Assembly: GCA_040757085.1 (NCBI GenBank)
Contig: JBFLXJ010000011.1
Location: 36,086 to 100,085 of the forward strand
Reading direction: 5' to 3'
Length of the DNA: 64,000 nt
DNA from: Bacillota bacterium
GTDB lineage: Bacteria; Bacillota; Sulfobacillia; JACIYH01
The notes below the pieces were generated by a model, which did not search any database, was not told the DNA's origin, and saw only the letters and a program-made list of their open reading frames with translations. Below, one piece after another: positions 8,910 through 28,677 of this stretch. Every line of letters starts with the position of its first letter. The stretch's first letter is position 1. The position numbers and the translations under genes are program-made.

Positions 8910-9001
8910 ACACATACCGGGAGGGATGCGGCCTCCGGGGGCGGGGGATGAGGATCCTCCGCCCCCGGCGGATGCAACCGCAGGGCAGGAGGATCACCTA
9001 A

Positions 9002-12792: not shown

Positions 12793-12813
12793 GGGGAGGG
12801 TGCATCCCTCCCC
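12793..12813. repeat. perfect 8-bp GC inverted repeat GGGGAGGG-TGCAT-CCCTCCCC in intergenic region 3' of recombinase
   Basis: seen directly; followed on + strand by AATCTTTGTCT; could be a terminator or a protein-binding site. Confidence 0.3.
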
Positions 12814-12887
12814 AATCTTTGTCTGGGGGATCGAAGTGAGATGACCAGGCAGAAAGACGGGCAACAACAAGGCCCCAGGCTGGGCCG

Positions 12888-13553: not shown

Positions 13554-14243
13554 ATGTCGTTCCAGAAGGTCAGCCGGTATCGCTTGTACCAGGACGTGGT
13601 AGGACAGCTGGTCGAGCACATAAGGAGCGGCCGGATCCGGCCCGGTGAGCGTTTCCCTTCCGAACGGGAACTGGAGCGGCAGATGGGGGTGAGCCGGGGC
13701 ATCCTGCGGGAAGCGTTCCGGGTGCTGGAGGTTCGGGGCATTATCGAATCCCGGCCCGGGGGCGGTAGGTTTCTCAGGCAGCTTGATGGCCAGAGCCTGT
13801 TCGATCTGGAGGCGGGCTTCGTCAGGCTGGAAAAGGCAGTTTTGCTGGACATTTGCGAGGCTAGACAGATCATCGAGGTTAGGGCGGCCCAGCTGGCGGC
13901 GGAACGGGGCAAGGATGAGGAAATCAGCCACATCGGGAGGGTAATCAACGACTTCTTCAGTACGCAGTTCGATTTGGGAGAGCAGATGGACCGCGACCTG
14001 GACTTTCACGTGGCCGTGGCGCGTTCTACCGGGAATCTGGTGATATGGGAGCTGGTGCGGGTGCTGGTCGGGATCCTGCGGGAACACCGGCAGCAGATGC
14101 ACCTGCCACGCGAAGAATGGGCCACGATGTGCCGCCAGCACTGCCACATCTACGAGGCAATCAGAGGCCGCGACGGCCCGGAAGCAGCCCGGCGCATGGC
14201 GGAACACCTGGATCGGTTGCGGAAAGCGTTACAGGAATCATAG
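13554..14243 (+). CDS. GntR-family transcriptional regulator (FadR/FCD subfamily)
   Basis: winged HTH signature (PSERELERQMGVSRGILREAFRVLEVRGII) plus C-terminal FCD-like helical domain; ATG with GGGAG RBS; six-frame ORF upstream part overlaps antisense and is rejected. Confidence 0.85.
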   Translation: MSFQKVSRYRLYQDVVGQLVEHIRSGRIRPGERFPSERELERQMGVSRGILREAFRVLEVRGIIESRPGGGRFLRQLDGQSLFDLEAGFVRLEKAVLLDICEARQIIEVRAAQLAAERGKDEEISHIGRVINDFFSTQFDLGEQMDRDLDFHVAVARSTGNLVIWELVRVLVGILREHRQQMHLPREEWATMCRQHCHIYEAIRGRDGPEAARRMAEHLDRLRKALQES

Positions 14244-14259
14244 CCGGGAGGCGGTAGCG

Positions 14260-14643
14260 GTGCGGATCAGGGAGCATCCCATCCTGACTTTCCCTGCGCG
14301 CAGGAAGGTGACGTTTTTCTTCGAGGGCCGTCCCCTGGAAGGGTATGAGGGGGAACCGATTGCTGCGGCGCTACACGCGGCCGGAATCCGGGTATTGCGC
14401 GAGAGCCCGGTGCTGGGCCGGCCGCGGGGGTTCTTCTGTGCGGTGGGCAACTGTTCCTCGTGCCTGATGGTGGTGGATGGGGTGCCCAACGTGCGGGTGT
14501 GTGTGGAGAAATTACGGGAAGGAATGCGGGTGGAGCGTCAGGCGGGGAAGGGTAACCTGCTCGCTGCCGTGGGTGGGGGCCGGGCTTCCGGGCTGGACTC
14601 TGGCGCGGCGCTGCACGGGTGTGGGGGTGAGGAGGGTGCTTAA
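14260..14643 (+). CDS. (2Fe-2S)-binding small subunit (HcnA / opine oxidase / sarcosine-oxidase-alpha N-terminal-like)
   Basis: Cys cluster CAVGNCSSCLMVVDGVPNVRVC typical of HcnA-type 2Fe-2S subunits; GTG start after GGGAGG. Confidence 0.7.
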   Translation: MRIREHPILTFPARRKVTFFFEGRPLEGYEGEPIAAALHAAGIRVLRESPVLGRPRGFFCAVGNCSSCLMVVDGVPNVRVCVEKLREGMRVERQAGKGNLLAAVGGGRASGLDSGAALHGCGGEEGA

Positions 14644-14650
14644 CCCCCAG

Positions 14651-15736
14651 GTGATGGTGGTGGGTGCGGGGCCGGCGGGGATGTCGGCGGCCTTGGCGGC
14701 GGCGGAATGGGGAGCCCGGGTTCTTCTGGTGGATTTGTTCTCGGAGCCGGGTGGGCAGCTGGTGAAGCAGACCCACAAGTTCTTTGGGTCCCGGGGGCAG
14801 TATGCGGGCACGCGGGGGATCGAGATTGCCCGCCTGCTGGGGGAGAAGGTGCGGTCTCATCCCGGCATAGATCTGTTGCTGGACACCCAGGTGCTGGGGT
14901 ACTACCCCGACGGGGTGCTCACCATGGAGCGATCGTTCAACGGGGAATCGGAGTACCTGAAGGCGCGTCCGCGCCGGCTGGTGGTGTGCACGGGTGCGCA
15001 GGAGAGGCCGCTTGCTTTTCCCGGCAATGACCTGCCCGGGGTGTACGGGGCGGGGGCGGTGCAGACGCTGATGAACGTGCATGGGGTGAAGCCGGGGCGG
15101 CGGGCGGTGATGGTGGGTGCGGGCAACATTGGTCTCATCATCTCGTATCAGCTTCGCCAGGCGGGCGTGGAGGTAGCCGCGGTGGTGGAAGCTGCTCCCA
15201 CGATCGGGGGGTATGCCGTGCATGCCTCCAAGATCCGCCGGCTGGGGATACCCATCCTGACGTCGCATTCGGTGAAGGAGGCCCGTGGTGAGCGGGAGCT
15301 GGAGGGTGTGACGGTGTGGAGGCTGGACGAGAGGTGGCAGGGTATCCCGGGTACCGAGTGTGACTTCGAGGCGGACGTGCTGTGCCTGGCGGTGGGTTTG
15401 TCGCCCCTGACGGAGCTTCTGTGGCAGGCGGGGTGCCGCATGGTGTACGTGCCCGAGCTGGGTGGTCATGTTCCCTGGCGTGATGAGCACCAGCAGACGT
15501 CGGTGCCGGGGATATTTGTGGCTGGTGATGCCTCCGGGGTGGAGGAGGCGTCGTCGGCCATGGTGTCGGGGCGGATTGCGGGGCTGGCGGCGGCGGCTTC
15601 GCTGGGGTTGTGCCCGTGCTACCGGGAACTGGCCCGGGAGGCACATGCCCAGCTTGAGGTGCTGCGGGCGGGTCCTCCGGGGGAGAAGATTCGCCGGGGT
15701 CTTGCGCGTCTGGGGGAGGTGGCGCGGGCATGCTGA
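14651..15736 (+). CDS. FAD/NAD(P)-binding oxidoreductase subunit (HcnB/OoxA-like alpha subunit)
   Basis: two dinucleotide-binding folds: VVGAGPAGMSAALAAAEWGARVLLVD and AVMVGAGNIGLIISYQLRQAGVEV; start set at GTG 14651 downstream of the upstream gene's stop. Confidence 0.75.
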   Translation: MMVVGAGPAGMSAALAAAEWGARVLLVDLFSEPGGQLVKQTHKFFGSRGQYAGTRGIEIARLLGEKVRSHPGIDLLLDTQVLGYYPDGVLTMERSFNGESEYLKARPRRLVVCTGAQERPLAFPGNDLPGVYGAGAVQTLMNVHGVKPGRRAVMVGAGNIGLIISYQLRQAGVEVAAVVEAAPTIGGYAVHASKIRRLGIPILTSHSVKEARGERELEGVTVWRLDERWQGIPGTECDFEADVLCLAVGLSPLTELLWQAGCRMVYVPELGGHVPWRDEHQQTSVPGIFVAGDASGVEEASSAMVSGRIAGLAAAASLGLCPCYRELAREAHAQLEVLRAGPPGEKIRRGLARLGEVARAC

Positions 15737-16233
15737 GGCAGACGGGGGTGCCCGCGGTGGAAGACCTGGCGCGGGTGATGCCTCCTGAGGAGGTGAGGCG
15801 CCGGGGGCCGGTGGCGATATTCGAGTGTTTTGAGCGGATCCCGTGTGATCCGTGTTACTGGGCGTGCAAGCGGGGTGCGGTGAGGCCGTTTAAGGACATC
15901 AATGATCTTCCCGGTGTTGATTGGGAGAGGTGCAATGGGTGCGGTCTGTGTGTGGCTGCCTGTCCGGGGCTGGCCGTATTCGTGGTGCACGAGGGGTACA
16001 CGGATAGCACGTCGCTGATCAAGTTGCCCTATGAGTTCCTCCCCCTGCCCGAGGTGGGGCAGGTGGTGGAAGCCCTGGACCGCGAGGGGAATTGCGTTGG
16101 TGAGGCGCGGGTGGTGAAGGTGCAGAGGTCGCGGGAGAAGGTGGGCACCCCGGTGCTGTGGATCGAGGTGGAGAGGGACCTGGCCCATGTAGTAAGGAAC
16201 ATTGCCGTGGCCGGGGGTGGGCAAGGTGAGTGA
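15730..16233 (+). CDS. ferredoxin-like Fe-S subunit (Cys-rich)
   Basis: CDPCYWAC...CNGCGLCVAACPGLAV 4Fe-4S-type motif; 7-nt overlap with upstream gene. Confidence 0.55.
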   Translation: MLRQTGVPAVEDLARVMPPEEVRRRGPVAIFECFERIPCDPCYWACKRGAVRPFKDINDLPGVDWERCNGCGLCVAACPGLAVFVVHEGYTDSTSLIKLPYEFLPLPEVGQVVEALDREGNCVGEARVVKVQRSREKVGTPVLWIEVERDLAHVVRNIAVAGGGQGE

Positions 16234-16594
16234 CCGGGATCAGGACGTGGTGATCTGCCGCTGTGAGGATGTCACGTTGGCCGAGATCAGGCGTCTGGTT
16301 GCCGAGGGTGCCTGTACTCTGGATGAGATAAAGAGGCTGACGCGGGCGGGGATGGGTTTGTGTCAGGGGCGTACGTGCCGGCACCTGATCCTGCAGGAGG
16401 TGTCGCGGCTGACCGGGGTGCCGGTGGAGGAGCTGGTGCTGCCCACCTTCCGTCCTCCCACCCGTCCTGTGAAGCTGGGTGTTATCGCGCGCGCGGCGGC
16501 TGCCCATGAGGCCGGCGCCGGGGTGGCTGCCCAGCACGCTGTCGGCGAGGTGCCTGCCTGCCAGGCTCCGGCAGGGGATGGTGGCCATGGTTAA
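16226..16594 (+). CDS. BFD-like (2Fe-2S)-binding domain protein
   Basis: CRCEDVTLAEI...GMGLCQGRTC pattern of BFD-like [2Fe-2S] domain; start uncertain (TTG 16202 / GTG 16226). Confidence 0.55.
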   Translation: MSDRDQDVVICRCEDVTLAEIRRLVAEGACTLDEIKRLTRAGMGLCQGRTCRHLILQEVSRLTGVPVEELVLPTFRPPTRPVKLGVIARAAAAHEAGAGVAAQHAVGEVPACQAPAGDGGHG

Positions 16595-17732
16595 GACGGC
16601 GGATGCGGTGGTGGTGGGTGGGGGGATCCAGGGGGTATCGGTGGCCTACCAGTTAGCGCTGCGGGGCCTGAAGCCGCTTCTGGTGGAGAAGGGGTACCTG
16701 GCCTCCGGGTCCACGGGCCGGTGTGCGGCGGGTGTGCGGCAGCAGTGGGGTACGGAGATGAACATCCGGCTGGCCCGGGCCAGCATCAAGATGTTCGAGC
16801 GGCTTGAGGAGGAGCTGGGTTACGCGCGGGGGATAGAGTTCAAGCAGCGAGGGTATTTGATTCTGGCGTACCAGGAGAGGCAGTGGGAGCAGTTTTTGCG
16901 GAACGTGGCCCTGCAGCGTTCGCTGGGTGTTCCCGTGGAGGTGCTTACGCCCGAGGGGGCGCGGGAGATAGTACCCTACCTGAACCCTGAGGGGGTGGTG
17001 GGTGCCACTTTCTGTCCGGAGGATGGGCATATCAATCCCTTCCGGGCGGTGGAGGCGTATGCGCAGGGGGCCTGCCGGCTGGGGGCAGAGATTTGGACTT
17101 TCACGCGGGTGACGGGGGTCAGGGTGGAAGGTGGGCGGGTGGTGGGGGTGTGCACCACCCGGGGAGAGGTTTCCACTCCGGTGGTGGTGAACACCGCCGG
17201 TCCCTGGTCGGACGAGGTGGCGGAGATGGCGGGTCTTGACATCCCCACCTATGCTCAGCGGCATCAGATTCTGGTCACTGAGCCGGTGGGGCCAATGCAG
17301 GGTCCGATGGTGATTTCCTTCTTCCACGGGCTGTACTGCCAGCAGACGCCGCACGGGAGCTTCATCATGGGGCTGGGGGATCCCCACGAGCCCCGCAACC
17401 TGGACTGCGGGGCCACCTGGCGTTTTCTGGAGGAGATGGCTGGTATCGTTGTGCGCATCCTGCCGCCTCTGGCCCATCTGCGGGTAGTGCGGCAGTGGGC
17501 GGGTTCTTACGACATGACGCCCGATGCCCAGCCCATTGTGGGGCCGGCTCCCGAACTGGAGGGCTACTACTATTCGGTGGGGTTCTCCGGGCACGGCTTT
17601 ATGCTGGCTCCCATGACGGGGAAGCTGCTGGCGCAGATCATCGTGGGCGAAGAGCCGGACATCCCTGTCGACCGGCTGGGTCCGGATCGCTTCGCACGCG
17701 GTGAGTTGATCCTTGAACCCGCGGTGGTGTGA
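16587..17732 (+). CDS. FAD-dependent oxidoreductase, sarcosine-oxidase-beta/HcnC/OoxB-like (beta subunit copy 1)
   Basis: DAVVVGGGIQGVSVAYQLALRG FAD fold, C-terminal GFSGHGFMLAP motif of DAO family. Confidence 0.8.
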   Translation: MVKTADAVVVGGGIQGVSVAYQLALRGLKPLLVEKGYLASGSTGRCAAGVRQQWGTEMNIRLARASIKMFERLEEELGYARGIEFKQRGYLILAYQERQWEQFLRNVALQRSLGVPVEVLTPEGAREIVPYLNPEGVVGATFCPEDGHINPFRAVEAYAQGACRLGAEIWTFTRVTGVRVEGGRVVGVCTTRGEVSTPVVVNTAGPWSDEVAEMAGLDIPTYAQRHQILVTEPVGPMQGPMVISFFHGLYCQQTPHGSFIMGLGDPHEPRNLDCGATWRFLEEMAGIVVRILPPLAHLRVVRQWAGSYDMTPDAQPIVGPAPELEGYYYSVGFSGHGFMLAPMTGKLLAQIIVGEEPDIPVDRLGPDRFARGELILEPAVV

Positions 17733-17808
17733 AGGAGCCCCCGCCGCAGGACGGGCGTGACCCCTGAGGCGGGAGGGAGCCGGGCAGGGCGGAGCGCGGG
17801 GTGGGAGC

Positions 17809-18963
17809 GTGGCAGACCTGATCGAGCGCACAGCCGACGCGGTCATAGTGGGGGGCGGGGTGCACGGGTGTGCGGTTGCCTACCACCTCTGCCGCCGTGG
17901 GCTCAAGGTTTCTCTGTTCGAACGGGGATACCTGGCCAGCGGCGCCACCGGGCGTTCTGCGGCGGGGGTCCGCCACCAGTTCGGCACCGAGATAAACTGC
18001 CGCCTGGCCATCTGGAACATTCGTCTCCTGGAGCACCTGGGGGAGGAACTCGACTACCCGTACGACCTGGAATTCACCCAGGGAGGGTACCTCCTGCTGG
18101 CGTACACACCCGGCCAACTGGAGCAGTTTGCCCGGAATGTGACCCTGCAGCGCAGCCTGGGCATTCCGTCAACCATCCTGTCTCCCGAGGAAGTGGCCCG
18201 GGTCGCACCTGGTCTCAACCTGGACGGGGTTCTGGGAGCCAGTTTCTGCGCGCGGGACGGTCACGTCAACCCCTTCCACCTCACCTGGTCGTACGCCCGG
18301 GCGGCCCGGCGCCTTGGTGCCCGCATTCACTGTTTTTGCCCGGTACATGCCGTGCTCGCCGGTGACTCGCGGGTGCGCGGCGTGCTTACCGGTGCCGGAC
18401 GGGTGGAGGCCCCGGTGGTGGTGATATGTGCGGGGGCGGAAGGAGCGGAACTGGCCCGCGCTCTGGGGCTAGATGTCCCTGTGTATGGTGAGCGGCACCA
18501 GATCCTGGTCACTGAGCCCGTGGCCCACTTCCTCGATCCCATGGTGCTCTGTTTCGAGGACGGCAGTTACTTCAAGCAGACCCCTCACGGCAGCCTGCTC
18601 ATGGGTATCGGAAGCCCCTTCGAGCCCAAAGGGTACGGGCAGGGGTCCAGCTGGCACTTTATGGAGGAGATGGCGTCGCGCATCGTGCGCCACGTTCCTG
18701 CCCTGGCCGGCGTGCGGGTGGTGCGGCAATGGGCCGGCCTCTATGATATCACTCCGGATTCCCAAGCCATCGTGGGGCCTGCCCCCCTGGAAGGGTTGTG
18801 GCTGGACCTGGGCTGGAGCGGCCACGGTCTGCAATTTGCCCCCAGTATCGGCCTCATCCTGAGCCAGCTCATCGTGGGAGAGCCTCCCTTGGTGGATGTC
18901 AGCCCGTTCCGCCTGGGGCGTTTTGCCACCGGCGAACTGGTACCGGAACCGGCCTGTGTGTGA
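17809..18963 (+). CDS. FAD-dependent oxidoreductase, sarcosine-oxidase-beta/HcnC/OoxB-like (beta subunit copy 2, tandem paralog)
   Basis: DAVIVGGGVHGCAVAYHLCRRG; collinear similarity to the upstream 16587-17732 gene (e.g. RHQILVTEPV, VVRQWAG, GWSGHG). Confidence 0.8.
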   Translation: MADLIERTADAVIVGGGVHGCAVAYHLCRRGLKVSLFERGYLASGATGRSAAGVRHQFGTEINCRLAIWNIRLLEHLGEELDYPYDLEFTQGGYLLLAYTPGQLEQFARNVTLQRSLGIPSTILSPEEVARVAPGLNLDGVLGASFCARDGHVNPFHLTWSYARAARRLGARIHCFCPVHAVLAGDSRVRGVLTGAGRVEAPVVVICAGAEGAELARALGLDVPVYGERHQILVTEPVAHFLDPMVLCFEDGSYFKQTPHGSLLMGIGSPFEPKGYGQGSSWHFMEEMASRIVRHVPALAGVRVVRQWAGLYDITPDSQAIVGPAPLEGLWLDLGWSGHGLQFAPSIGLILSQLIVGEPPLVDVSPFRLGRFATGELVPEPACV

Positions 18964-19075
18964 TGCAAGAGGAAGGAGGCGAGAGCGACCCATATTCCGG
19001 TGACTCGTAGCGGCCCCAGAGGCCAGGTCAAAGGCGGTTAGAGTCAAGCTCACCATCAGCCAGGAGGAGAGAACG

Positions 19076-20227
19076 ATGAGAAAAATAATGGTGTGTGTGG
19101 TTGTCCTGGGTCTATTGCTCTCCGTATCCGCTGCCTGCGCCCAGCAACCCAAGGCCAAGCCTACGATCAAAATCGGTTACTTGGCGCCTCTAACGGGTGA
19201 TTGGGCGTTCGAAGGCCAGGAGGGCATAAAGAAGCCACTCGAAATGCTGGTCGAGCAGGTGAACAAGCAAGGCGGGTTGTTGGGAGGCAGGCAGATCGAG
19301 CTTATCTCCGCCGACGATCAGAGTGATGCCAAGCAGGCTGCTCTAGCTGCCCAAAAGCTCATAACAGCCGGTGCGAAAATCGTTATCGGGTCTTACGCTT
19401 CCACGTGTACCGAACCGGCTTCGCAGCTGTTCAACGACGCAGGGATCCTGCACATCACGCCGATATCCACGGCTACACGGCTAACGGAAAAAGGCTACAA
19501 ACGATTCTTCCGTACCTGCGTTACGGACGACAAGCAGGGGCTGTTTGCTGCTGAGTTCATTTCCAAGACGCTGGGCAAGAAGCGGGTAGCCATCATACAC
19601 GACAACACCACGTACGCCAAAGGCCTTGCTGATTGGAGCAAGAAGTACATGGAAGACGCCGGGCTGGAAGTGGTGTTCTTCGATGCAATTACTCCCAAAG
19701 AAAAGGACTACACGGCTGTTCTTACGAGGCTCAAGGCCGCTAAGCCCGAGGTCTGGTACTTTACCGGCTATTACCCAGAAGCTGCTCTACTGGTCAGACA
19801 GGCCGCAGACGTGGGTTTGGATGCGCAGATGATGGTGGGCAATGCAGTTAACAACCCCGAGTTCGTGAAGATGGCGGGAATTGAGTTTGCCAAGCGTGTG
19901 ATCATCACTACCGAGCCGATGCCGAAGGACCTCCCATGGCCGGAGGCCAGGAAGTTCCTGGAAGATTACAAGGCTCGGTATGGCGAATATCCGCGCAGCG
20001 TCTGGGCGCCTTTCACCGCAGATGCTTTCCGCGTAATCGTGGAGGCGATCAACCGCACGAACTCGGACGACCCAGCCAAACTTGCTGAGTACCTGCATAA
20101 TGAGCTTAAGGATTTCCCTGGCATCAGCGGACTGATACCAGGCTTCGATGAAAAGGGCGACCGTAAGGGCACCATCCACATGGCGTATACCGTTAATGAC
20201 CAGGGCGAGTTCGTGCTGTGGAAGTAG
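19076..20227 (+). CDS. ABC transporter substrate-binding protein, branched-chain/hydrophobic amino-acid (LivJ/K) family
   Basis: signal peptide; type-I periplasmic binding fold motifs; AGGAGG RBS. Confidence 0.85.
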   Translation: MRKIMVCVVVLGLLLSVSAACAQQPKAKPTIKIGYLAPLTGDWAFEGQEGIKKPLEMLVEQVNKQGGLLGGRQIELISADDQSDAKQAALAAQKLITAGAKIVIGSYASTCTEPASQLFNDAGILHITPISTATRLTEKGYKRFFRTCVTDDKQGLFAAEFISKTLGKKRVAIIHDNTTYAKGLADWSKKYMEDAGLEVVFFDAITPKEKDYTAVLTRLKAAKPEVWYFTGYYPEAALLVRQAADVGLDAQMMVGNAVNNPEFVKMAGIEFAKRVIITTEPMPKDLPWPEARKFLEDYKARYGEYPRSVWAPFTADAFRVIVEAINRTNSDDPAKLAEYLHNELKDFPGISGLIPGFDEKGDRKGTIHMAYTVNDQGEFVLWK

Positions 20228-20233
20228 CCGTGG

Positions 20234-20266
20234 GGGGGAGGGGCGGTCGAGTACCGCCCTTTCCCC
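20234..20266 (+). promoter_or_regulatory. strong GC stem-loop immediately after the SBP gene stop (possible intra-operon attenuator/partial terminator)
   Basis: GGGGGAGGGGCGGT-CGAGT-ACCGCCCTTTCCCC, ~13 bp stem; no U-tract. Confidence 0.3.
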
Positions 20267-20299
20267 TGTCGATCCTGAAGGGGTAGGGTGGTTCGAGCC

Positions 20300-21301: not shown

Positions 21302-21373
21302 AGCTCCCAGGTGTTGCTGGCTGGGACGCCAGGGGGCTCACTGGGCCTTGTTAGGTGGAGGTAGGCGAGGCGC

Positions 21374-22279
21374 ATGGAGCAAATCGTTCAGCAGGTGTTA
21401 AATGGGCTCACGGTGGGGTCGGGTTACGCCCTGGTTGCCCTGGGCTACACGATGGTATACGGGGTCCTGAAGTTCATCAACTTTGCTCACGGAGACCTGT
21501 TCATGTTGGGCACGTACGTCGGCCTCAGCGTGGCCCTTGTTTGTCTGGGCGGCGGCTTGTCGAATCAATGGCTCGTTCTCTTACTGGTATTCGTCGCAGC
21601 CATGAGTCTGGTCGGCCTCGTCGGGGTATCCATAGAGCGCGTTGCGTACCGTCCTCTCCGCAGGTCGGGCAGGCTGGCCCCGGTCGTGTCTGCCCTAGGA
21701 TGCGCGGTTGTATTGCAGAACGCGGTTATGCTGGCTTCCGGTGCTCGCTACCAGGTGTTCCCGGAAGGGCTGGTGCCAAGCGCGGCATGGAGGGTGGCAG
21801 GCATGACCGTCCCCTTGCTGAGAGTAAGTGTGCTGATCCTCTCTTTGATCTTCATGGGACTCTTGTACCTGTTCATCCATCGCACTACTGTGGGGGCGGC
21901 CATCCGCGCCACTGCGCTGGATCACGATACTGCCCGGCTCATGGGCATCAATGTGGACCGCATCATAATGCTGGTGTTCCTGATCGGCCCTGCCTTGGGC
22001 GCGGCAGCAGGCATTATGATCGGGCTCTACTACCGGCAAGTATACTTTACCATGGGCTGGAGCTATGGTCTGAAGGCTTTCACCGCGGCCGTCTTGGGAG
22101 GGATTGGCAACATCCCCGGGGCTATGGTAGGTGGCATAATCCTCGGCTTGTTGGAGACCCTTGGTGCAGCATACATCTCGGCGGCTTGGAAGGATGCCTT
22201 CGCCTTTCTCCTGCTCATCAGTATCTTGATCTTGCGCCCCACCGGCCTCTTGGGCGAGCGGGTAGCGGAAAAGCTTTAG
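21374..22279 (+). CDS. livH: branched-chain amino acid ABC transporter permease (LivH-type)
   Basis: typical LivH N-terminus MEQIVQQVLNGLTVGSGYALVALGYTMVYG, 8 TM. Confidence 0.8.
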   Translation: MEQIVQQVLNGLTVGSGYALVALGYTMVYGVLKFINFAHGDLFMLGTYVGLSVALVCLGGGLSNQWLVLLLVFVAAMSLVGLVGVSIERVAYRPLRRSGRLAPVVSALGCAVVLQNAVMLASGARYQVFPEGLVPSAAWRVAGMTVPLLRVSVLILSLIFMGLLYLFIHRTTVGAAIRATALDHDTARLMGINVDRIIMLVFLIGPALGAAAGIMIGLYYRQVYFTMGWSYGLKAFTAAVLGGIGNIPGAMVGGIILGLLETLGAAYISAAWKDAFAFLLLISILILRPTGLLGERVAEKL

Positions 22280-22291
22280 GGGGCGGCAGAG

Positions 22292-23278
22292 ATGGTGAGC
22301 AAGATACCCCGCAGAGCTTGGGTCAGTGTTCTGGTAGCAGGTCTCGTTGCTTGCCCATGGCTGGTAAGTGACTATTGGGTAGATGTAATGAACTTCTGCG
22401 GCATCTACATCTTGCTGGGCCTGAGTTTGAACGTCATCGTCGGGTACGCGGGACTGTTCAATCTGGGGCATGCGGCATTCTATGCGGTAGGTGCGTACAC
22501 CACAGCTATTCTTTCTACCCGCCTGGGCATACCATCGCTGCTACTCCTGCCTGTGTCCGCGCTGGCAGCTGCCGCCTTCGCGTATATCATCTCCCGTCCC
22601 ATTATCCACCTCCGGGGCGACTACCTGTGCGTAGTGACCATCGGGTTCGGCGAGATCGTGCGCATTGCCCTGCTCAACAATCCATGGGGCCTCACGGGCG
22701 GAGTCAACGGCGTGTTTGGTATCCCGCGACCCAGCCTGGGATTCTTCACCATACGGACGGTGGACCAGTACTACTACTTCATCCTGCTGTTCATCGTGCT
22801 GTTCGTGTGGGCCATGAGGCGCTTGGAGAGGTCCCGCGTGGGCAGAGCATGGACGTGCATAAGGGAGGACGAAACGGCAGCCGAGGCCATGGGGATGGAT
22901 ACCGCATCGCTGAAGCTGCTTGCGTTCGTGCTGGGGGCGGCGGGGGCGGGAATCGCCGGCAACATCTATGCATCCAAGATGACCCTGATTGCCCCCGAGA
23001 GCTTTAACTTCTGGGAGTCGTGCGTCATGTTTTGCATCGTGGTACTGGGCGGAACTGGTTCCATCCCAGGGGTAATTGTAGCCTCCTTGGGCATGACCGC
23101 CCTGCCCGAACTGTTCCGGGAATTTGCCCGGGCGCGCATGCTCGTCTTCGGCCTGGCCATGGTGCTCATGATGATCTTCCGCCCCCAGGGGTTGTGGCCC
23201 AGCGCCCACTGGCGCCGGCAGGTCCAGCGAGAGGGGGACCTGGCCGGGACTCCAACGGCGGCTACAGGTCCCGGCTAG
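22292..23278 (+). CDS. livM: branched-chain amino acid ABC transporter permease (LivM-type)
   Basis: hydrophobic LivM-like permease, follows livH. Confidence 0.8.
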   Translation: MVSKIPRRAWVSVLVAGLVACPWLVSDYWVDVMNFCGIYILLGLSLNVIVGYAGLFNLGHAAFYAVGAYTTAILSTRLGIPSLLLLPVSALAAAAFAYIISRPIIHLRGDYLCVVTIGFGEIVRIALLNNPWGLTGGVNGVFGIPRPSLGFFTIRTVDQYYYFILLFIVLFVWAMRRLERSRVGRAWTCIREDETAAEAMGMDTASLKLLAFVLGAAGAGIAGNIYASKMTLIAPESFNFWESCVMFCIVVLGGTGSIPGVIVASLGMTALPELFREFARARMLVFGLAMVLMMIFRPQGLWPSAHWRRQVQREGDLAGTPTAATGPG

Positions 23279-23372
23279 CGGGCTTTCGCCCGATGCTTGC
23301 TGGTGAGTGCTCTGGCGGTGGGGGCTGGGTGCCGCATCCTGGGCCAGTTTCGCAAGGAGCAGGTGGTGACCC

Positions 23373-24143
23373 TTGCTGGAAGTGAAGTCCCTGACAAAGC
23401 GGTTCGGTGGACTGGTGGCGGTCAACCGGGTGGAGTTCGAGTTACGTCCGGGCGAGATCCTGGGCATGATAGGGCCCAACGGGGCCGGCAAGACCACGGT
23501 TTTCAACATGATCACGGGGATTTACCGGCCTGACGAAGGGAGCATCCGCCTTGAGGGCCGGGAACTGGTGGGGCTGCGCCCCCACGACATCACCGCCCTG
23601 GGGATCGCGCGGACCTTCCAGACCATCAGGCTTTTTCCTAACCTGACTGTCATGGAAAACGTGATGGCGGGCCAGTACTGTCGCACGCGGGCGGGGATAT
23701 GGGACGCCCTGGTGCTCAGCCGGCGCCACCGTCAGGAAGAAGCGGCTATCCTGGAGGAAGCGGAGAGGCGACTGGCCTTCATGGGCCTTTCCCACCTGGC
23801 GGAGGAACTCGCCCGCAACCTCCCCTATGGTTTGCAGCGCCGGCTGGAGATCGCCCGTGCCCTGGCCACGCGGCCCAAGCTCCTGGTCCTGGACGAACCC
23901 GCGGGGGGATTAAACGACCAGGAGACTAGAGAGTTGATGGACTGGGTGGTCCAGATCCGGGACAGTGGGATCACCGTTTTCCTGATCGAGCACGACATGA
24001 CGGTGGTAATGGGGATCTGCGACCGCATCATCGTGCTGGATAACGGCGAAAAGATCGCCGAAGGCACACCCGCAGAGGTACAGTCCAACCCGCGGGTGAT
24101 CGAAGCATATCTGGGGAAGGAAGAAGAGGGGTTCCATGGTTGA
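23373..24143 (+). CDS. livG: ABC transporter ATP-binding protein (LivG-type)
   Basis: Walker A GPNGAGKTT, signature and Walker B LLVLDEPAGGLN, LivG C-terminal extension. Confidence 0.85.
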   Translation: MLEVKSLTKRFGGLVAVNRVEFELRPGEILGMIGPNGAGKTTVFNMITGIYRPDEGSIRLEGRELVGLRPHDITALGIARTFQTIRLFPNLTVMENVMAGQYCRTRAGIWDALVLSRRHRQEEAAILEEAERRLAFMGLSHLAEELARNLPYGLQRRLEIARALATRPKLLVLDEPAGGLNDQETRELMDWVVQIRDSGITVFLIEHDMTVVMGICDRIIVLDNGEKIAEGTPAEVQSNPRVIEAYLGKEEEGFHG

Positions 24144-24861
24144 CCAAGGCATCCTGGAAGTGCAAGACCTGCACGTCTATTACGGTCACGTCCATGCCCT
24201 CAAGGGCGTTACGTTTCAGGTCTACCCGGGAGAAATCGTGGCCCTGCTTGGAGCCAACGGGGCGGGCAAGTCCACCACCCTGCGGGCAATTTCCGGGTTG
24301 GTCCGTCCCCGCCAGGGGGATGTGCGGTGGCAGGGCCAGTCTCTGCGTAACGTCCCTGCTCATGCCATCGTGGCCAGAGGGGTTTCCCACGCCCCCGAGG
24401 GGCGCAGAGTGTTCAGTACCCTTACCGTGGAGGAGAACCTGAACCTGGGCGCGTACAGCAGGCGCGGGGATCGAGAGGGTGTAGCCCGCAGCAAGGAGCG
24501 TGTCTTTACCCTCTTCCCCCGGCTGGCCGAGCGCCGCCACCAGCTAGCCGGCACGCTCTCGGGAGGAGAACAGCAGATGCTGGCGATCGGCCGGGCCCTG
24601 ATGTCCTCGCCCCGTCTTCTCCTCCTGGACGAGCCCTCCCTGGGACTGGCCCCTCTGCTGGTGCGTGCCATCTTTCAGACCATCCGGGAGATAAACGAGC
24701 AGGGGGTCACCATCCTGCTGGTGGAACAGAACGTGCGGGCGGCCTTGCGTCTGGCTCACCGCGCCTACGTTCTGGAAACGGGTAGGCTGGCCCTGGCGGG
24801 TACGGCGGAGGAATTGCGCCAGGATCCCCGCGTGCGCAAGGCCTACCTGGGCGAGAAATAG
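24136..24861 (+). CDS. livF: ABC transporter ATP-binding protein (LivF-type)
   Basis: Walker A GANGAGKSTT, LSGGEQQMLAIGRAL signature, 8-nt overlap with livG. Confidence 0.85.
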   Translation: MVDQGILEVQDLHVYYGHVHALKGVTFQVYPGEIVALLGANGAGKSTTLRAISGLVRPRQGDVRWQGQSLRNVPAHAIVARGVSHAPEGRRVFSTLTVEENLNLGAYSRRGDREGVARSKERVFTLFPRLAERRHQLAGTLSGGEQQMLAIGRALMSSPRLLLLDEPSLGLAPLLVRAIFQTIREINEQGVTILLVEQNVRAALRLAHRAYVLETGRLALAGTAEELRQDPRVRKAYLGEK

Positions 24862-24939
24862 CTGGCCCGAGACCTGCCCGGGGTGGGAACGCGGTCTCGG
24901 GGAAAACGCCCGGTCCCGCCGGGCAAGGAGGTGCTCGCT

Positions 24940-25938
24940 GTGCCCGGGGATTTGCTCATACTCACGGCGGACGACGTCAGGCGGGCTCTGCCCATGGAGC
25001 GGGCCATTTCGGCGTGTGAGGAAGCCTATGGAGCCTACTCCTCAGGCCAGGCCCTGGTTCCCCTGCGCACCCAGATTCCCGTGCCCGAATTCGAAGGGGT
25101 CAGCGTTTTCATGCCCGGTCACGTTTCCGGCGCGGGGGCGACCGGTCTCAAGGTGGTCTCCGTGTACCCGCGCAACCCGGAACACGGGCTGCCCACGATC
25201 ATGGGGATGGTGGTCCTGCTCGATGCTTCCACAGGTACCCCCCTGGCCCTGCTGGAAGGTGGGTACCTTACCGCCCTGCGCACGGGAGCGGCAGCGGGGG
25301 TGGCAGCCCGGTACCTTGCCCCCGCCGGTGCCCGGGTGGCAGCGCTGTTTGGGGCCGGGGTCCAGGGCCGCACCCAGGTGCTGGCGCTGGCGGCCGTGCG
25401 ACCCATCGAGGAGGTGCGGGTGTTCGATCCCGTGCCCGGACGCGCCCAGGCGCTGGCCCGCGACCTGGCCGGCGAGCTCCCCGCGGTAAGGTGGGTGTTT
25501 CCCTCCCACCCCCGGGAGGCAGTGGCGGGAGCGCAGGTGGTGCTCGCTGCTACCACTTCCTCGCGGCCGGTATTTCCCGGCGATGCTCTCGCCCCGGGTA
25601 CCCACGTCACTGCCATCGGGGCATTTACCCCCAGCATGCAGGAGATAGATGAAACTACTATCTTGCGCGCCAGCAAACTGGTGGTGGATTCCCGGGAGGC
25701 GGTGCTGGCCGAGGCCGGGGACATCATCATTCCCCTCCGGGAGGGGAAGATCACCCGTGATCACATCTTCGCAGAAATAGGCGAGATAGTGCTCGGCCGT
25801 AAACCCGGCCGCCAGGCCGCCGACGAGACCACCGTGTACAAGGCGGTGGGTCTGGCGGTGCTCGATGTGGCGGCCGCGGCCGCCGCCTACCGGGGCGCCC
25901 GGGAACTGGGCCTGGGCACCAGAGTGCGGCTGCTCTGA
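24940..25938 (+). CDS. ornithine cyclodeaminase / mu-crystallin family enzyme
   Basis: OCD-family Rossmann segment ALFGAGVQGRTQVLALAAVRP; GTG start 8 nt after AAGGAGG; six-frame ORF upstream extension rejected. Confidence 0.8.
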   Translation: MPGDLLILTADDVRRALPMERAISACEEAYGAYSSGQALVPLRTQIPVPEFEGVSVFMPGHVSGAGATGLKVVSVYPRNPEHGLPTIMGMVVLLDASTGTPLALLEGGYLTALRTGAAAGVAARYLAPAGARVAALFGAGVQGRTQVLALAAVRPIEEVRVFDPVPGRAQALARDLAGELPAVRWVFPSHPREAVAGAQVVLAATTSSRPVFPGDALAPGTHVTAIGAFTPSMQEIDETTILRASKLVVDSREAVLAEAGDIIIPLREGKITRDHIFAEIGEIVLGRKPGRQAADETTVYKAVGLAVLDVAAAAAAYRGARELGLGTRVRLL

Positions 25939-26063
25939 CCGCATCCCGGCGCTTCCCACGTCCACTCAATTGCAGGCTGTGCTTTGTAACTCAGGTCAGC
26001 CGCCCTCGTCCGCGGCGCGAAGACGCCCCCCTGGGGAAAAGTATGGGCGAGAGGTGATCGCCC

Positions 26064-27206
26064 GTGGGCGTGGGCAAAACGCGCCCAGTGTTCGCTGTGC
26101 TGGGGGGAGGCAACGGGGGGCTGGCCGCTGCCGCCGACCTCGCGCTGAAGGGGTTTGAGGTCAGGCTGTTTGAACTTCCCGAGTTCGCCCACACTGTAGC
26201 ACCGGTGTCGGAAGCGGGAGGAATCCAGTGCGAGGTGCTCCCCAGCACCGGGCTGAGGGAGGGATTTGCCCGCCTGGCTGCCGTCACCACGGACATCGGG
26301 GCGGCGGCCAGGGGGGCCGACGTGGTACTGGTCATCGTGCCCTCCTTTGCCCACCGCCGCTTTGCGGAAATGTGTGGTTCCGTGCTGGAACCCGGCCAGG
26401 TGGTGCTGGTCGCGCCCGGGAACTTCGGTGGGGCGCTGGAGTTTGCGCTCACCTGGAAGAGACAGGGGATGAACCCGGGCGGGGTGGTGCTGGCCGAGGC
26501 GGAGTCCCTCATTTACGCCTGCCGCAAGAAGGGACCCACCACCATCTGGATTCGGGGATACAAGCGGTCCTTGCGCGTAGCAGCCCTCCCCGCCACCCGC
26601 ACGGATCGAGTTCTGGCGACCCTCAAAGAAGCATATCCCACCCTGGAGGCAGCCCAGAATGTCTTGGAAACCAGCCTGAGTAATCCCAACGCCCCCACCC
26701 ACCTTCCCGTGATGATTCTCAACGCCGCGCGCATTGAACGGACGCAGGGCGATTTCCTCTTCTACAAAGAGGGGATGAGTCCGGCAGTGGGACGGGTAAT
26801 CGAGGCGATAGATGCCGAGCGCCTGGCGGTGGGCAGGGCCCTGGGCCTGCGAAGGATGCGCTCCCTGTACGAGCAGGACATGTCCTGGTATGCCCACCAG
26901 GGTACCTTTGGACAGAACATTTACGAGACCAACGTAAACAATCCCATATACAGTTGGAGCCGGGCGCCCGAGTCCTTCGAGCACCGCTACGTCACGGAAG
27001 ACGTCCCTTACGGTCTTGTGCCCCTCGAGGACCTGGGGGCAACGCTGGGGATCCCGACCGCCACCACCACGGCCGTCATCCACCTGGCGGGGGTGATTGC
27101 TGACCGGGACCTGCGCGAAGGTGCCCGCACCCTGCAGGCGCTGGGCCTCGGTGACGTTCCCCTCACACGCCTGATAGAGATGGTCGAGGAGACGGGCGTG
27201 GCATGA
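26064..27206 (+). CDS. opine dehydrogenase-family NAD(P)-dependent oxidoreductase, copy 2
   Basis: VFAVLGGGNGGLAAAADLALKGFEV; collinear with copy 1 (e.g. YELP/FELPEF, VVPAFGH/IVPSFAH, NPN..HPP/NPNAPTHLP, TEDVPQGLVP/TEDVPYGLVP). Confidence 0.7.
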   Translation: MGVGKTRPVFAVLGGGNGGLAAAADLALKGFEVRLFELPEFAHTVAPVSEAGGIQCEVLPSTGLREGFARLAAVTTDIGAAARGADVVLVIVPSFAHRRFAEMCGSVLEPGQVVLVAPGNFGGALEFALTWKRQGMNPGGVVLAEAESLIYACRKKGPTTIWIRGYKRSLRVAALPATRTDRVLATLKEAYPTLEAAQNVLETSLSNPNAPTHLPVMILNAARIERTQGDFLFYKEGMSPAVGRVIEAIDAERLAVGRALGLRRMRSLYEQDMSWYAHQGTFGQNIYETNVNNPIYSWSRAPESFEHRYVTEDVPYGLVPLEDLGATLGIPTATTTAVIHLAGVIADRDLREGARTLQALGLGDVPLTRLIEMVEETGVA

Positions 27207-28642
27207 GGTACTTCGTCACCGGTGGGACGGTGGTTACCGGGGACGGGCGTACTGTGCTGGAAGAAGCCGCCGTGGTGGTGGAGGGGACGCTCATCGCGGA
27301 TGTGCTCCCCGGTTCCCCTGCGGATAACCCCACAGCCCCCGATCCTTCGGGGGGTGCGACAGGTCCCTCCGGTTCGGCCTCCACTGCCTGCGCGGGAGAG
27401 GTCATCGATGCCCGCGGGTGTTACGTGGTCCCCGGTCTCATCAACCATCACGCCCACGGCTGCGCTCTGGGCCCCCTTTTTGCCAGCGGGGCCGAGCCCC
27501 TTTCCGGGGAGGAAGTACGACAGAACCTGCTCAGGCATCTGGAGGCCGGCACCACCACCATACTGAACGTGGACGGGTTCGCCCTGCCCGAGGAGGTGGA
27601 AGCCGCTCGTCGATACCATCCCCTGAACCTGAAGACGGCCAGTTCCCACACCCCGCTCAACCTCAAGGCGGCGGCGCTGGCGGATGGTAAGGGGCTTTCC
27701 CCGCGACACCGCAAGATGACGGCGGAGAAGATGGTGGAGGCCGGGGCCGTCTGCCTGGGAGAAATCGGAGGGGGTCATACCCTGGGTGGGGGTGGCCAGG
27801 AATACCTGTACATACCGCGGGCCATACGGGCACGGACGGGAAGGTACGTATCGCCGGCCGGGGCGCGAGCTCTTAAGACGGCCGTGCTGGGCCGGTACAT
27901 CGATCCCCGGGCTTACAGCGAGGAAGCCGTGCGGGCGGTGTTGGCCGAGCTGGGCCTCGCCGGCCTCCTTTCGCCCGAGGAGGCGAGACGACTGGTGGAA
28001 GACGCGGTGCTGCCTTCGTTCCGGGTGGCGCTGGACGGGATGCGGGAGGCCGCCGAAGTGGCGGCCCGGCTGGGAGTCCCCGTCATCCTCCACACCGCCG
28101 CCCCTTCCAAGGCCGTATTGCTGGAACTGAGCCGAAAGGCACCCCGGCTCACGGCGGGAGACCGGTCCGCGGGGGAATGCCGGTTCATCGCCGCCCACTG
28201 CAACCACGATTCCCTGCTGGTAGATGAAGCGGTCGACTTGGCCGTGCGGCTGCGGGCAGCCGGGATCCTGGTGGATGTGGCCACCTTCGATGCGTTGGGG
28301 GCCCGGTACACCACCCCGGGCCCGGAAGTCCTCCTGGAGCTGGTCGCACGGGGGGCTGCCGACCTGGTGTCCACGGACTACGCGGGAGGCCTGTTCGACC
28401 CCCAGGTGGTGGCTCTGGCGGAGGTGGTAAGGCGCGGATTGCGGCCCCTTCCCGAGGCAGTGGCCATGGTCACGGGAAGGGTGGCGGATGCCATCCCCTG
28501 CCTGGCTCCCGGTCGCGGTTACCTGGCGCGGGGCCGGGTGGCCGACCTGGTCCTTCTCCGCCAGGATGACCTGACCCAGGTGGAACTGGTGATGGTGGAG
28601 GGCCGAGTGGTGACCCATCGTGCCCCGGACGTCCGGGTATGA
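27203..28642 (+). CDS. amidohydrolase-family metal-dependent hydrolase
   Basis: GCYVVPGLINHHAHG HxH metal motif near N-terminus; 4-nt overlap with upstream gene. Confidence 0.6.
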   Translation: MRYFVTGGTVVTGDGRTVLEEAAVVVEGTLIADVLPGSPADNPTAPDPSGGATGPSGSASTACAGEVIDARGCYVVPGLINHHAHGCALGPLFASGAEPLSGEEVRQNLLRHLEAGTTTILNVDGFALPEEVEAARRYHPLNLKTASSHTPLNLKAAALADGKGLSPRHRKMTAEKMVEAGAVCLGEIGGGHTLGGGGQEYLYIPRAIRARTGRYVSPAGARALKTAVLGRYIDPRAYSEEAVRAVLAELGLAGLLSPEEARRLVEDAVLPSFRVALDGMREAAEVAARLGVPVILHTAAPSKAVLLELSRKAPRLTAGDRSAGECRFIAAHCNHDSLLVDEAVDLAVRLRAAGILVDVATFDALGARYTTPGPEVLLELVARGAADLVSTDYAGGLFDPQVVALAEVVRRGLRPLPEAVAMVTGRVADAIPCLAPGRGYLARGRVADLVLLRQDDLTQVELVMVEGRVVTHRAPDVRV

Positions 28643-28677
28643 CTCTCCGGCCCCGTCGGCGTTGTTTTTGATCGGTC

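Follow-up and report, generated by a model that had tools for sequence, protein, structure and literature searches.

A candidate composite operon for proline uptake and oxidation in a bacterium of the phylum Bacillota

The stretch of DNA analysed here (hereafter the window) is 64,000 nucleotides (nt) long and belongs to a bacterium of the phylum Bacillota (assembly GCA_040757085.1, contig JBFLXJ010000011.1, positions 36,086 to 100,085 of the forward strand). Within it, positions 13554-28642 are filled exactly by 16 co-directional genes on the + strand, which encode a GntR/FCD regulator, a heteromeric flavin-dependent dehydrogenase with two catalytic beta subunits, a Liv-type importer of the ATP-binding cassette (ABC) class, a proline racemase homologue, a protein of the ornithine cyclodeaminase (OCD)/mu-crystallin family, an opine-dehydrogenase homologue (ODH2) and an amidohydrolase (AHS2) (Table 1). 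The gene map combines Pfam scans with independent gene calls from a public contig, JBMONE010000026.1 (GCA_049324795.1), that is base-for-base identical across 21 kb spanning the locus; all Pfam negatives given below for the window refer to scans of its main open reading frames (ORFs). Neighbouring genes of the operon lie no more than 125 nt apart, and some overlap by 4-8 nt. A sequence-only reading of the same DNA had listed these families in this order, and had proposed that they serve the catabolism of a cyclic or N-alkylated amino acid; every gene that it listed is confirmed, and its general idea is upheld. On balance, and with a confidence only somewhat better than even, we favour a composite operon for the uptake and oxidation of proline.

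Table 1. Features of the operon and of its upstream neighbourhood, in coordinates of the window
Feature	Position	Strand	Basis
GntR/FCD (FadR-subfamily) regulator, probable operon regulator	13554-14243	+	Pfam GntR and FCD
Fer2_4 small [2Fe-2S] subunit	14260-14643	+	Pfam Fer2_4; 127 amino acids (aa)
Alpha core, FAD/NAD-binding Pyr_redox_2; electron-transfer or NADH-dehydrogenase subunit	14636-15736	+	Pfam; 366 aa
4Fe-4S ferredoxin-like subunit, gamma/PdhF position	15730-16233	+	Pfam Fer4 families; 167 aa
BFD-like [2Fe-2S]/SO_alpha_A3 subunit, delta/PdhX position	16226-16594	+	Pfam
Beta1, catalytic FAD subunit, probable L-proline dehydrogenase (forming pyrroline-5-carboxylate)	16587-17732	+	Pfam DAO
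Beta2, divergent second catalytic FAD subunit	17809-18963	+	DAO family
Liv-type (Peripla_BP_6) substrate-binding lipoprotein	19076-20227	+	Pfam
Pro_racemase, Cys-Cys type	20300-21301	+	Pfam Pro_racemase, 391 bits
LivH/LivM-type permeases	21374-22279, 22292-23278	+	Pfam BPD_transp_2
LivG/LivF-type ATPases	23373-24143, 24136-24861	+	Pfam ABC_tran and BCA_ABC_TP_C
OCD/mu-crystallin family protein	24940-25938	+	Family assignment
ODH2, NAD(P)-dependent opine-dehydrogenase family	26064-27206	+	Pfam Octopine_DH, 156 bits
AHS2, metal-dependent amidohydrolase	27203-28642	+	Pfam Amidohydro_1 and Amidohydro_3
Terminator-like hairpin with T-run, operon end	28647-28659	+	Consensus scan
Upstream Amidohydro_3 (D-aminoacylase-like) protein	698-2410	+	Pfam and NCBIfam
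ODH1, second opine-dehydrogenase homologue	2465-3559	+	Pfam and NCBIfam

Five genes downstream of the regulator gene encode the core of the flavoenzyme. The alpha protein carries two GxGxxG motifs (GAGPAG and GAGNIG), matches both residues 170-487 of SoxA and PH1363, and contains Pyr_redox-type domains only. The 4Fe-4S protein, with a CxxCxxCxxxC motif at residues 68-78 and further cysteines at positions 33, 39, 42 and 46, occupies the place of PdhF, which we take to be the ferredoxin subunit in the pdhA-F-X-B system of Thermococcus profundus. The small Fer2_4 protein has the gamma-type motif C60-x4-C65-x2-C68-x12-C81 and is 41% identical to the gamma subunit of a gamma-alpha-beta cluster from Azospirillum. 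This four-cysteine domain of about 120 residues is not fused to alpha, but is encoded by a separate 127-aa ORF whose end overlaps the start of alpha by 8 nt. In the archaeal enzyme it makes up the N-terminal part of alpha (~120 residues), the counterpart of the free-standing gamma subunit found in D-hydroxyproline dehydrogenase and in flavin opine dehydrogenase (Watanabe et al., PMC4575208). Similarly, the BFD-like protein aligns to residues 385-460 of the unsplit Azospirillum alpha subunit, and the delta subunit is known to correspond to the C-terminal ~90 residues of unsplit alpha subunits (PMC4575208). The Pfam order Pyr_redox_2, Fer4, BFD/SO_alpha_A3 and DAO equals the archaeal order, which is pdhA-F-X-B in T. 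profundus and OCC_00347/342/337/332 in Thermococcus litoralis (PMC4364671).

The catalytic subunit beta1 contains the motif GGGIQG and an RxW FMN-site motif (RQW302). Among solved proteins, the beta subunit of the L-proline dehydrogenase (L-ProDH) of Pyrococcus horikoshii, 1y56_B, is its nearest relative, with 310 bits, as compared with 247 bits for the beta subunit of the Azospirillum gamma-alpha-beta enzyme and 154-164 for SoxB. A heterotetrameric sarcosine oxidase was considered and rejected: the folate-binding SoxA half is missing from alpha, in which Pfam found no GCV_T domain, SoxD and SoxG are absent, beta1 is far nearer to the proline dehydrogenase beta subunit, and the scores against the sarcosine oxidase models TIGR01372 and TIGR01373 fall far under their cutoffs. 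The flavoprotein accordingly does not cluster with sarcosine enzymes, a point on which the sequence-only reading had staked its proposal. The three-subunit gamma-alpha-beta layout of opine dehydrogenases was likewise set aside, as the 167-aa 4Fe-4S protein is encoded between the two parts of a divided alpha, the core and the BFD-like piece. As judged from sequence, the Fer2_4, alpha, Fer4, BFD-like and beta1 proteins are a bacterial form of the archaeal alpha-beta-gamma-delta L-proline dehydrogenase. They share with the dye-linked archaeal enzymes (pdhA-F-X-B, OCC_00347-00332, and the alpha4beta4 enzyme PH1363/PH1364, structure 1Y56) the closest beta subunit, the alpha-ferredoxin-delta-beta order, the GxGxxG, RxW and Fe-S motifs, and a linkage to proline-related genes. 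In contrast to those enzymes, the present system has its N-terminal [2Fe-2S] domain in a gene of its own, as in the gamma subunits of D-hydroxyproline and opine dehydrogenases, resides in a bacterial host, and would provide one electron-transfer set for two beta genes. To our knowledge, dye-linked heteromeric proline dehydrogenases have been characterised biochemically mainly in Thermococcales.

Metagenome contigs were scanned with an alignment of beta sequences and 80 loci were kept (L074-L153), 40 of which are at least 12 kb long. All 40 long loci hold alpha together with a single beta (53-71% identity to beta1), while the Fer2_4, BFD-like and Fer4 genes are present in 39, 38 and 35 of them, respectively, in unchanged order; the split of the four-cysteine domain from alpha recurs in 39. 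None of the 40 contains a second beta, OCD-family, racemase, Octopine_DH or AHS2 gene within 10 kb. The neighbouring ORFs of the long loci were clustered, which identified the genes that lie 3' of beta. An aldehyde dehydrogenase gene follows beta directly in six of the 40, and a representative of this protein scores 793.6 bits (cutoff 613.6) against TIGR01236, the model of L-glutamate gamma-semialdehyde/pyrroline-5-carboxylate (P5C) dehydrogenase. In a further arrangement, seen in 14 of the 40, a gene for an aldehyde:ferredoxin oxidoreductase (AOR) stands just 3' of beta, with a ferredoxin gene in between in 11 cases. The beta1 protein of the window falls inside this clade of single-beta bacterial modules, whose operons continue with P5C dehydrogenase or AOR. 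Because its orthologues precede these genes, and given the homology to the P. horikoshii enzyme, the module is predicted to be a proline dehydrogenase that makes P5C or glutamate semialdehyde; both observations together are the strongest evidence for a P5C-forming enzyme. They point to a route from proline to glutamate in anaerobes that would be independent of PutA and linked to ferredoxin. Liv-type ABC genes adjoin the module in six to nine of the 40 loci, and a gene for a sigma-54 activator lies near it in nine loci, including four of the five with Liv ABC genes upstream. The five-gene module is widespread in metagenomes from bioreactors, fermentations and sediments (e.g. L122:2568-12790 and L114:9611-13458), and the predicted split proline dehydrogenase would therefore be a common enzyme in bacteria of anaerobic digesters, fermenters and sediments.

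The second beta subunit is 55% identical to beta1 and has the corresponding motifs GGGVHG and RQW306. Its scores are 219 bits with 1y56_B, 227 with the Azospirillum beta subunit and 177-191 with SoxB; a neighbour-joining tree without support values puts it outside the entire single-beta clade. Beta2 lacks dedicated alpha, gamma and delta genes and was found only in this lineage, that is, in the window and in two related metagenome-assembled genomes (MAGs), L005 (GCA_030019365.1) and L010 (JACIYH010000005.1), which have the same operon through AHS2; the L005 locus starts at the alpha gene and the L010 locus at the BFD-like gene, genes further upstream lying outside both. In Bradyrhizobium japonicum, experiments on OdhB1-C-A-B2 showed two beta subunits to assemble with one shared alpha-gamma pair (PMC4575208). 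Should beta2 assemble with the alpha, gamma and delta subunits of beta1, this would be a case of subunit exchange, and we propose that beta2 may oxidise D-proline or another imino acid. A tblastn search with beta2 across plasmids, a weak negative as to a placement with OoxB/NoxB, gave no Agrobacterium among the 15 best records, all with an identity of at most 37%. The best plasmid-borne homologue of beta2 is encoded on plasmid p3 of Azospirillum argentinense (L073:7224-10146), in the unsplit gamma-alpha-beta cluster, which has the OdhC-A-B order; that cluster lies directly 3' of a Liv-type ABC importer and beside a complete sarcosine oxidase operon.

The substrate-binding protein (SBP) of the importer has a signal peptide with a lipobox-like SAAC motif. 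It is 69-70% identical to the SBPs of the two related MAGs, as against 78-91% for the products of the genes from Fer4 through ODH2 and 74-75% for AHS2. Its ligand is inferred to be proline. Downstream of the importer genes, the OCD-family protein has as its best solved relative 6t3e, the pyrroline-2-carboxylate (Pyr2C) reductase TlLhpI of T. litoralis (267.6 bits, against 193 for the alanine dehydrogenase AfAlaDH). Glu56, Asp228 and Lys232 (Pseudomonas putida numbering) are replaced by Val, Phe and Met here and by Leu, Val and Ala in TlLhpI, whereas AfAlaDH keeps the Asp and the Lys. A true ornithine cyclodeaminase (EC 4.3.1.12) is rejected on these grounds, its catalytic residues not being conserved; the family named by the sequence-only reading stands, but the cyclodeaminase function does not. 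No NCBIfam equivalog cutoff is reached, and the second-ranked NCBIfam match is NF004793, a bifunctional Pyr2C/piperideine-2-carboxylate (Pip2C) reductase (243.5 bits, cutoff 322). The protein is probably a TlLhpI-like, NAD(P)H-dependent reductase of Pyr2C or Pip2C.

The racemase homologue keeps both catalytic cysteines, Cys89 (in MCGH) and Cys254 (in DRSPCGTG), a check proposed with the sequence-only reading. A Cys-Thr trans-3-hydroxy-L-proline (T3LHyp) dehydratase of the LhpH type is rejected, since the second catalytic residue is a cysteine (SPCGTG), in contrast to the SPTGTG of the solved dehydratase-type relative 6r76. At ligand sites 1 and 5 the protein has Phe61 and Phe244, which align to F62 and W241 of TlProR; site 5 is Trp in the bifunctional TlProR, whose W241F mutant favours proline, and Cys or Tyr in the hydroxyproline epimerase HypE (Watanabe 2015). 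The best solved relative is the proline racemase (ProR) of Acetoanaerobium sticklandii, with 335 bits, and a homologue from Caldanaerovirga, 51% identical, is encoded inside a prd operon for D-proline reductase. Like clostridial PrdF of Stickland operons, then, the racemase is of the Cys-Cys type with Phe at sites 1 and 5; unlike PrdF, it is encoded in an oxidative proline operon, between SBP and permease genes, and Pfam detected no prd genes in the window.

A segment of 1.1 kb that contains the racemase gene (20244-21371) has no counterpart in L005 and L010, where livH directly follows the SBP gene, so that the insertion between SBP and permeases noticed in the sequence-only reading is borne out. 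The hairpin-containing spacer 3' of the SBP gene is kept in both MAGs, and the SBP and racemase genes have the lowest G+C content at third codon positions (GC3) of the operon, 0.68. Because the two relatives lack the segment, and in view of the low GC3, the racemase is a recent capture into an existing operon; this supports proline as the substrate of the operon in this organism. The operon thus shows the acquisition of a Stickland-type racemase.

At the 3' end of the operon, the start of AHS2 overlaps the end of ODH2 by 4 nt. ODH2 scores 206 bits against N-(1-D-carboxyethyl)-L-norvaline dehydrogenase (CENDH, 1bg6) and conserves the catalytic residues His202 and Asp297, which places it in the fold family of CENDH/ArODH and the hot-spring metagenomic enzymes termed mODHs. 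It differs from them in that both specificity positions, 111 and 198, are Asn (Ala/Asn in ArODH, Arg/Gly in the mODHs), and in that its gene is next to one for an uncharacterised amidohydrolase in all Bacillota loci that were examined (L005, L006, L008, which is the same contig as L014, L010-L013 and L015); the two genes are co-directional in nine loci and divergent in L015. In L006, L008 and L011-L015 the pair occurs without flavoenzyme or OCD genes. By its distribution, ODH2-AHS2 is a separate, mobile two-gene module that would have been recruited to the operon and is not integral to the proline pathway. A Peptidase_M19 gene is divergent just upstream of the pair in L008/L014 (L008:8842-9810), L012 (L012:7571-8683) and L013 (L013:89-1285), and in L006 another one (L006:3651-4604) lies beyond a Liv ABC operon that intervenes between it and the pair; M14 carboxypeptidase and CN_hydrolase genes are also found nearby in some loci. 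This genomic context, often with an M19 dipeptidase, gives leads to the real substrate of the pair.

In an alignment of 32 sequences, AHS2 has the invariant metal-ligand residues H83/H85, H297, H332 and D392; K144 is conserved in the four closest sequences and lies outside the invariant or near-invariant columns. The family is small, with 138 matches at E <= 1e-10 among 8,000 candidates scored from a collection of 5.8 billion proteins. A single-sequence search of the PDB returned no solved relative, and a profile matched only the generic N-terminal HxH region. The AF2 model (pLDDT 90.8) resembles amidohydrolase structures with a Foldseek probability of 1.0, at TM values of 0.45-0.56 to dihydroorotase, hydantoinase and beta-aspartyl dipeptidase. 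From these residues and the predicted structure, AHS2 is a member of the amidohydrolase superfamily that matches no characterised subfamily. Homologues with 39-43% identity were found in Lutispora saccharofermentans (L071:6305-10930) and in a Clostridia MAG (L072:6434-10649), between two fumarase-like (class I, mesaconase-like) genes and a methylaspartate ammonia-lyase gene, a context governed by a sigma-54 activator of the PrpR type; it hints that the substrates of the AHS2 family are amides or cyclic amides of a (methyl)aspartate-like acid. Full-length orthologues with 40-43% identity and no adjacent ODH gene are present in Arthrobacter and Pseudarthrobacter (L016-L027, e.g. L017:7511-14397), where they neighbour genes for an HTH-cupin regulator, an Asp/Glu/hydantoin-racemase-like protein, an amidase-signature enzyme, an HpcH aldolase and an SBP_bac_5 protein. 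Arthrobacter is also the genus that yielded the opine dehydrogenase CENDH.

These elements can be combined into a tentative scheme for the operon. The Liv-type ABC system would import proline, and beta1 would convert L-proline to P5C, which is in equilibrium with glutamate semialdehyde. Electrons would pass via FMN/FAD, the two [2Fe-2S] pieces and the ferredoxin subunit to NAD+ or to a ferredoxin or quinone acceptor, and a P5C dehydrogenase encoded outside the window would make glutamate. Four additions of this lineage would widen the input. On a second branch, beta2 would borrow the alpha, gamma and delta subunits and form Pyr2C by oxidation of D-proline, or of a related imino acid, at C2; the TlLhpI-like reductase would turn this product into L-proline. 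A sequence D-Pro to Pyr2C to L-Pro has been proposed where a Cys-Cys racemase replaces the dehydratase (Watanabe et al.). The captured PrdF-type racemase may offer, in this genome only, a direct shortcut between D- and L-proline. Finally, the probable role of ODH2-AHS2 is to release an N-substituted or D-configured derivative of an amino acid and to dehydrogenate it.

Several points weigh against this scheme. Neither P5C dehydrogenase nor AOR is encoded in the operon or elsewhere in the window, unlike in half of the orthologous loci; if the proline model is right, the missing enzyme is encoded elsewhere. Beta2 scores equally on the archaeal L-ProDH beta subunit and on the proteobacterial gamma-alpha-beta enzyme, and its specificity is a guess. 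The racemase stays under the NCBIfam trusted cutoff for every family model, although the proline racemase model scores highest (NF010576, 405.1 bits with a cutoff of 556; HypE, 323.8; T3LHyp dehydratase, 314). Lastly, since ODH2-AHS2 is found elsewhere without proline genes, the pair may serve another substrate, and the operon may not have one unifying substrate.

The sequence-only reading had leaned towards opine-type catabolism, in which the flavoenzyme, and especially beta2, would cleave an imported N-(carboxyalkyl) amino acid in the manner of OoxAB, NoxAB or OdhABC, ODH2 and AHS2 would process opines, lactams or amides, and the OCD-family enzyme would take the released amino acid. The flavoenzyme indeed belongs to the same superfamily as OdhABC, OoxAB, NoxAB and D-hydroxyproline dehydrogenase and has a separate gamma-type [2Fe-2S] subunit comparable to OdhC, and it is precisely for opine dehydrogenase that two betas on one alpha-gamma pair are documented, in B. 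japonicum (PMC4575208). The beta subunit of type-2 flavin opine dehydrogenase (OpnDH), moreover, is reported to be close to that of archaeal L-ProDH and yet inactive on proline (PMC4575208), and beta2 scores equally on L-ProDH and on a proteobacterial enzyme encoded beside a Liv ABC importer. An ABC importer and a PF02317 gene are linked in both settings: the PF02317 homologue PP_4452 flanks the P. putida OdhABC genes (PMC4575208), ODH2 is a bona fide PF02317 enzyme with its His-Asp dyad, and two ODH copies lie in a single 28-kb part of the window. The flavoenzyme itself tells otherwise, as the operons of the clade that includes beta1 close with P5C dehydrogenase or AOR, and as the ferredoxin and split delta reproduce the pdhA-F-X-B layout, while OdhABC is described as a three-subunit enzyme without them (PMC4575208). 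Nor does the OCD-family protein have the cyclodeaminase residues used in the occ/noc pathways, the plasmid search brought up no Agrobacterium, a proline racemase was acquired amid the transporter genes, and the ODH2-AHS2 pair travels independently of the flavoenzyme. We consider opine catabolism by the operon as a whole unlikely: the classical octopine/nopaline analogy is weak in view of the OCD residues, the subunit layout and the P5C dehydrogenase linkage, whereas an opine-like substrate for beta2 or for ODH2-AHS2 is possible.

It is a little less probable, in our view, that the operon has no common substrate and concatenates by chance a proline dehydrogenase, a generic amino-acid importer, a reductase and ODH2-AHS2, which would have no more than strand and regulator in common. 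The occurrence of the five-gene module alone in 40 of 40 loci speaks for such a view, as do the ODH2-AHS2 pairs without flavoenzyme in L006, L008 and L011-L015. Against chance, the gene order through AHS2 is kept at 76-83% nucleotide identity in L005 (from alpha) and L010 (from the BFD-like gene), spacing is tight with overlaps, the accessory enzymes all act on imino acids or secondary amines, and the proline racemase was inserted in the middle of the operon. A pipecolate or D-lysine branch is very unlikely. There, the flavoenzyme would oxidise L-pipecolate, the OCD-family enzyme would reduce Pip2C, and proline would be a side substrate; the alpha4beta4 L-ProDH and TlLhpI also act on L-pipecolate and Pip2C (Watanabe et al.), and NF004793, although short of its cutoff, names a reductase of both Pyr2C and Pip2C. 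The orthologous modules, however, pair with the TIGR01236 P5C dehydrogenase and not with an aminoadipate-semialdehyde dehydrogenase, and the captured racemase is of the proline type, not the lysine type. Least probable of all is the use of trans-4- or trans-3-hydroxyproline, with the racemase as epimerase, a beta subunit as D-hydroxyproline dehydrogenase and the OCD-family protein as Pyr2C reductase: T3LHyp metabolism has been tied to a T. litoralis cluster that contains these enzyme families, hydroxyprolines too are epimerised by TlProR, and among the NCBIfam models that match the racemase 4-hydroxyproline epimerase ranks second and T3LHyp dehydratase third, but the sole family member is Cys-Cys with no Cys-Thr dehydratase beside it, site 5 is the Phe of ProR and neither the Trp of TlProR nor the Cys/Tyr of HypE, Pfam found in the window no deaminase for pyrroline-4-hydroxy-2-carboxylate of the dihydrodipicolinate synthase (DHDPS) family, no alpha-ketoglutarate-semialdehyde dehydrogenase/Aldedh and no AcnX, and L005 and L010 keep the rest of the operon without the racemase.

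Proline uptake and oxidation thus remains the reading that we prefer, and of the substrates named by the sequence-only reading, proline itself is retained on the strength of beta1 and the P5C dehydrogenase linkage, while hydroxyproline is dropped for want of the dehydratase, DHDPS-family and Aldedh enzymes and because of the Phe at site 5. Part of this picture is already known. The T. litoralis cluster comprises two L-ProDHs, TlProR, TlLhpH, TlLhpI and transporter genes (Watanabe et al. 2014, 2015), and thermophilic bacteria in which a Cys-Cys racemase substitutes for the dehydratase have been reported (Watanabe et al.); the combination of a heteromeric L-ProDH, a Cys-Cys racemase, a TlLhpI-type reductase and transporter genes is common to that cluster and to the window. 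Unlike the T. litoralis cluster, the present operon has no Cys-Thr T3LHyp dehydratase, has Phe in place of Trp at racemase site 5, gained its racemase by a recent insertion, and carries an appended opine-dehydrogenase/amidohydrolase pair. What is new is the split five-gene bacterial form, its breadth across metagenomes and its direct wiring to P5C dehydrogenase or AOR, as well as a second beta gene that lacks dedicated alpha, gamma and delta genes, a PrdF-type racemase that was demonstrably inserted of late and the appended ODH-amidohydrolase module.

The pairing of an opine-dehydrogenase homologue with an amide hydrolase is recurrent, as ODH1 accompanies a D-aminoacylase-like hydrolase and ODH2 accompanies AHS2. 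ODH1 and ODH2 are 33% identical, and the two amidohydrolases of the window are non-homologous, with only the HxH region in common. ODH1 is part of a second putative catabolic cluster (122-10824), which holds genes for an HTH-cupin regulator, the Amidohydro_3 protein, ODH1, a beta-lactamase-family protein with DUF3471, an S9 peptidase (Dpp5-like), an SBP_bac_5 protein and DppB/DppC; the D-aminoacylase, first ODH copy and peptidases that the sequence-only reading had placed upstream of the operon are thus present according to Pfam. No ATPase genes for the Dpp-type transporter appeared in the Pfam scans. Hot-spring enzymes of the ODH family are very weak on their best test substrate, with a kcat/Km of about 0.04 per s per mM. 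A long shot, argued from chemistry and gene context, is that the ODH homologues of thermophilic Bacillota might not be opine enzymes but NAD(P)-linked dehydrogenases for D-configured amino or imino acids. It is suggested because the carbon oxidised by opine dehydrogenases is D-configured, and because the partner hydrolases are of types tied to the release of D-amino acids (AHS2 with an M19 dipeptidase elsewhere, ODH1 with a D-aminoacylase-like amidohydrolase and a beta-lactamase-family peptidase). If it were true, ODH2 (D-Pro to Pyr2C and back) and the TlLhpI-like reductase (Pyr2C to L-Pro) would act as a two-enzyme redox 'racemase' that supplies the proline dehydrogenase, the true proline racemase captured later would be a shortcut, and the pathway would be new, as would the activities of PF02317 and of the AHS2 subfamily.

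The setting of the operon is at odds with the 'island' of the sequence-only reading, in so far as this implied foreign DNA. A foreign genomic island was rejected: GC content resembles that of the flanks, the operon is found in both related MAGs, and a UDG-DUF72-dnaE region adjoins it in L005 as it does in the window. Since L005 and L010 hold the same operon, it is vertically inherited, the 1.1-kb racemase segment being the only insertion. The deviation in composition that the same reading had suggested looking for exists over the SBP and racemase genes and nowhere else in the operon, where GC and GC3 are like those of the flanks (the GC of the window is about 65%). Most operon segments of L005 and L010 have 76-83% nucleotide identity to the window, and the SBP gene about 70%. 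To the right, a gene for a TtuA-like tRNA 2-thiolation protein (28732-29679) follows the operon in the window and in L010 but not in L005, which indicates that the right-hand junction of the operon is variable. Terminator-like hairpins are no more frequent in the region than in shuffled sequence, so the hairpin at the operon end is weak evidence. A GntR gene with 57% identity to that of the operon adjoins an orthologous module upstream in the metagenomic locus L075; a scan with the FadR-type consensus found no canonical TNGTNNNACNA operator near the operon, and the counts of sites were below chance.

To the left, a large serine recombinase gene (11088-12632; Resolvase, Recombinase and Zn_ribbon_recom domains) separates the Dpp-type permease genes from the GntR gene. 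It is accompanied in the region 10882-13265 by a 69-aa ORF and by a 125-aa ORF on the reverse strand, both without family match, and a search for att-like repeats around it gave only short repeats at chance level. Downstream, the window contains yqfD, hrcA, dnaJ and ddl, which fits a spore-forming host among the Bacillota. The fraction of IVYWREL residues in the encoded proteins, 0.44, corresponds in the Zeldovich regression, which is rough and sensitive to GC, to an optimal growth temperature of about 76-79 C. Between hrcA and dnaJ (window 40364-44469) lies a gene of the Cpn60_TCP1 family (41465-43060), followed by a 96-aa ORF.

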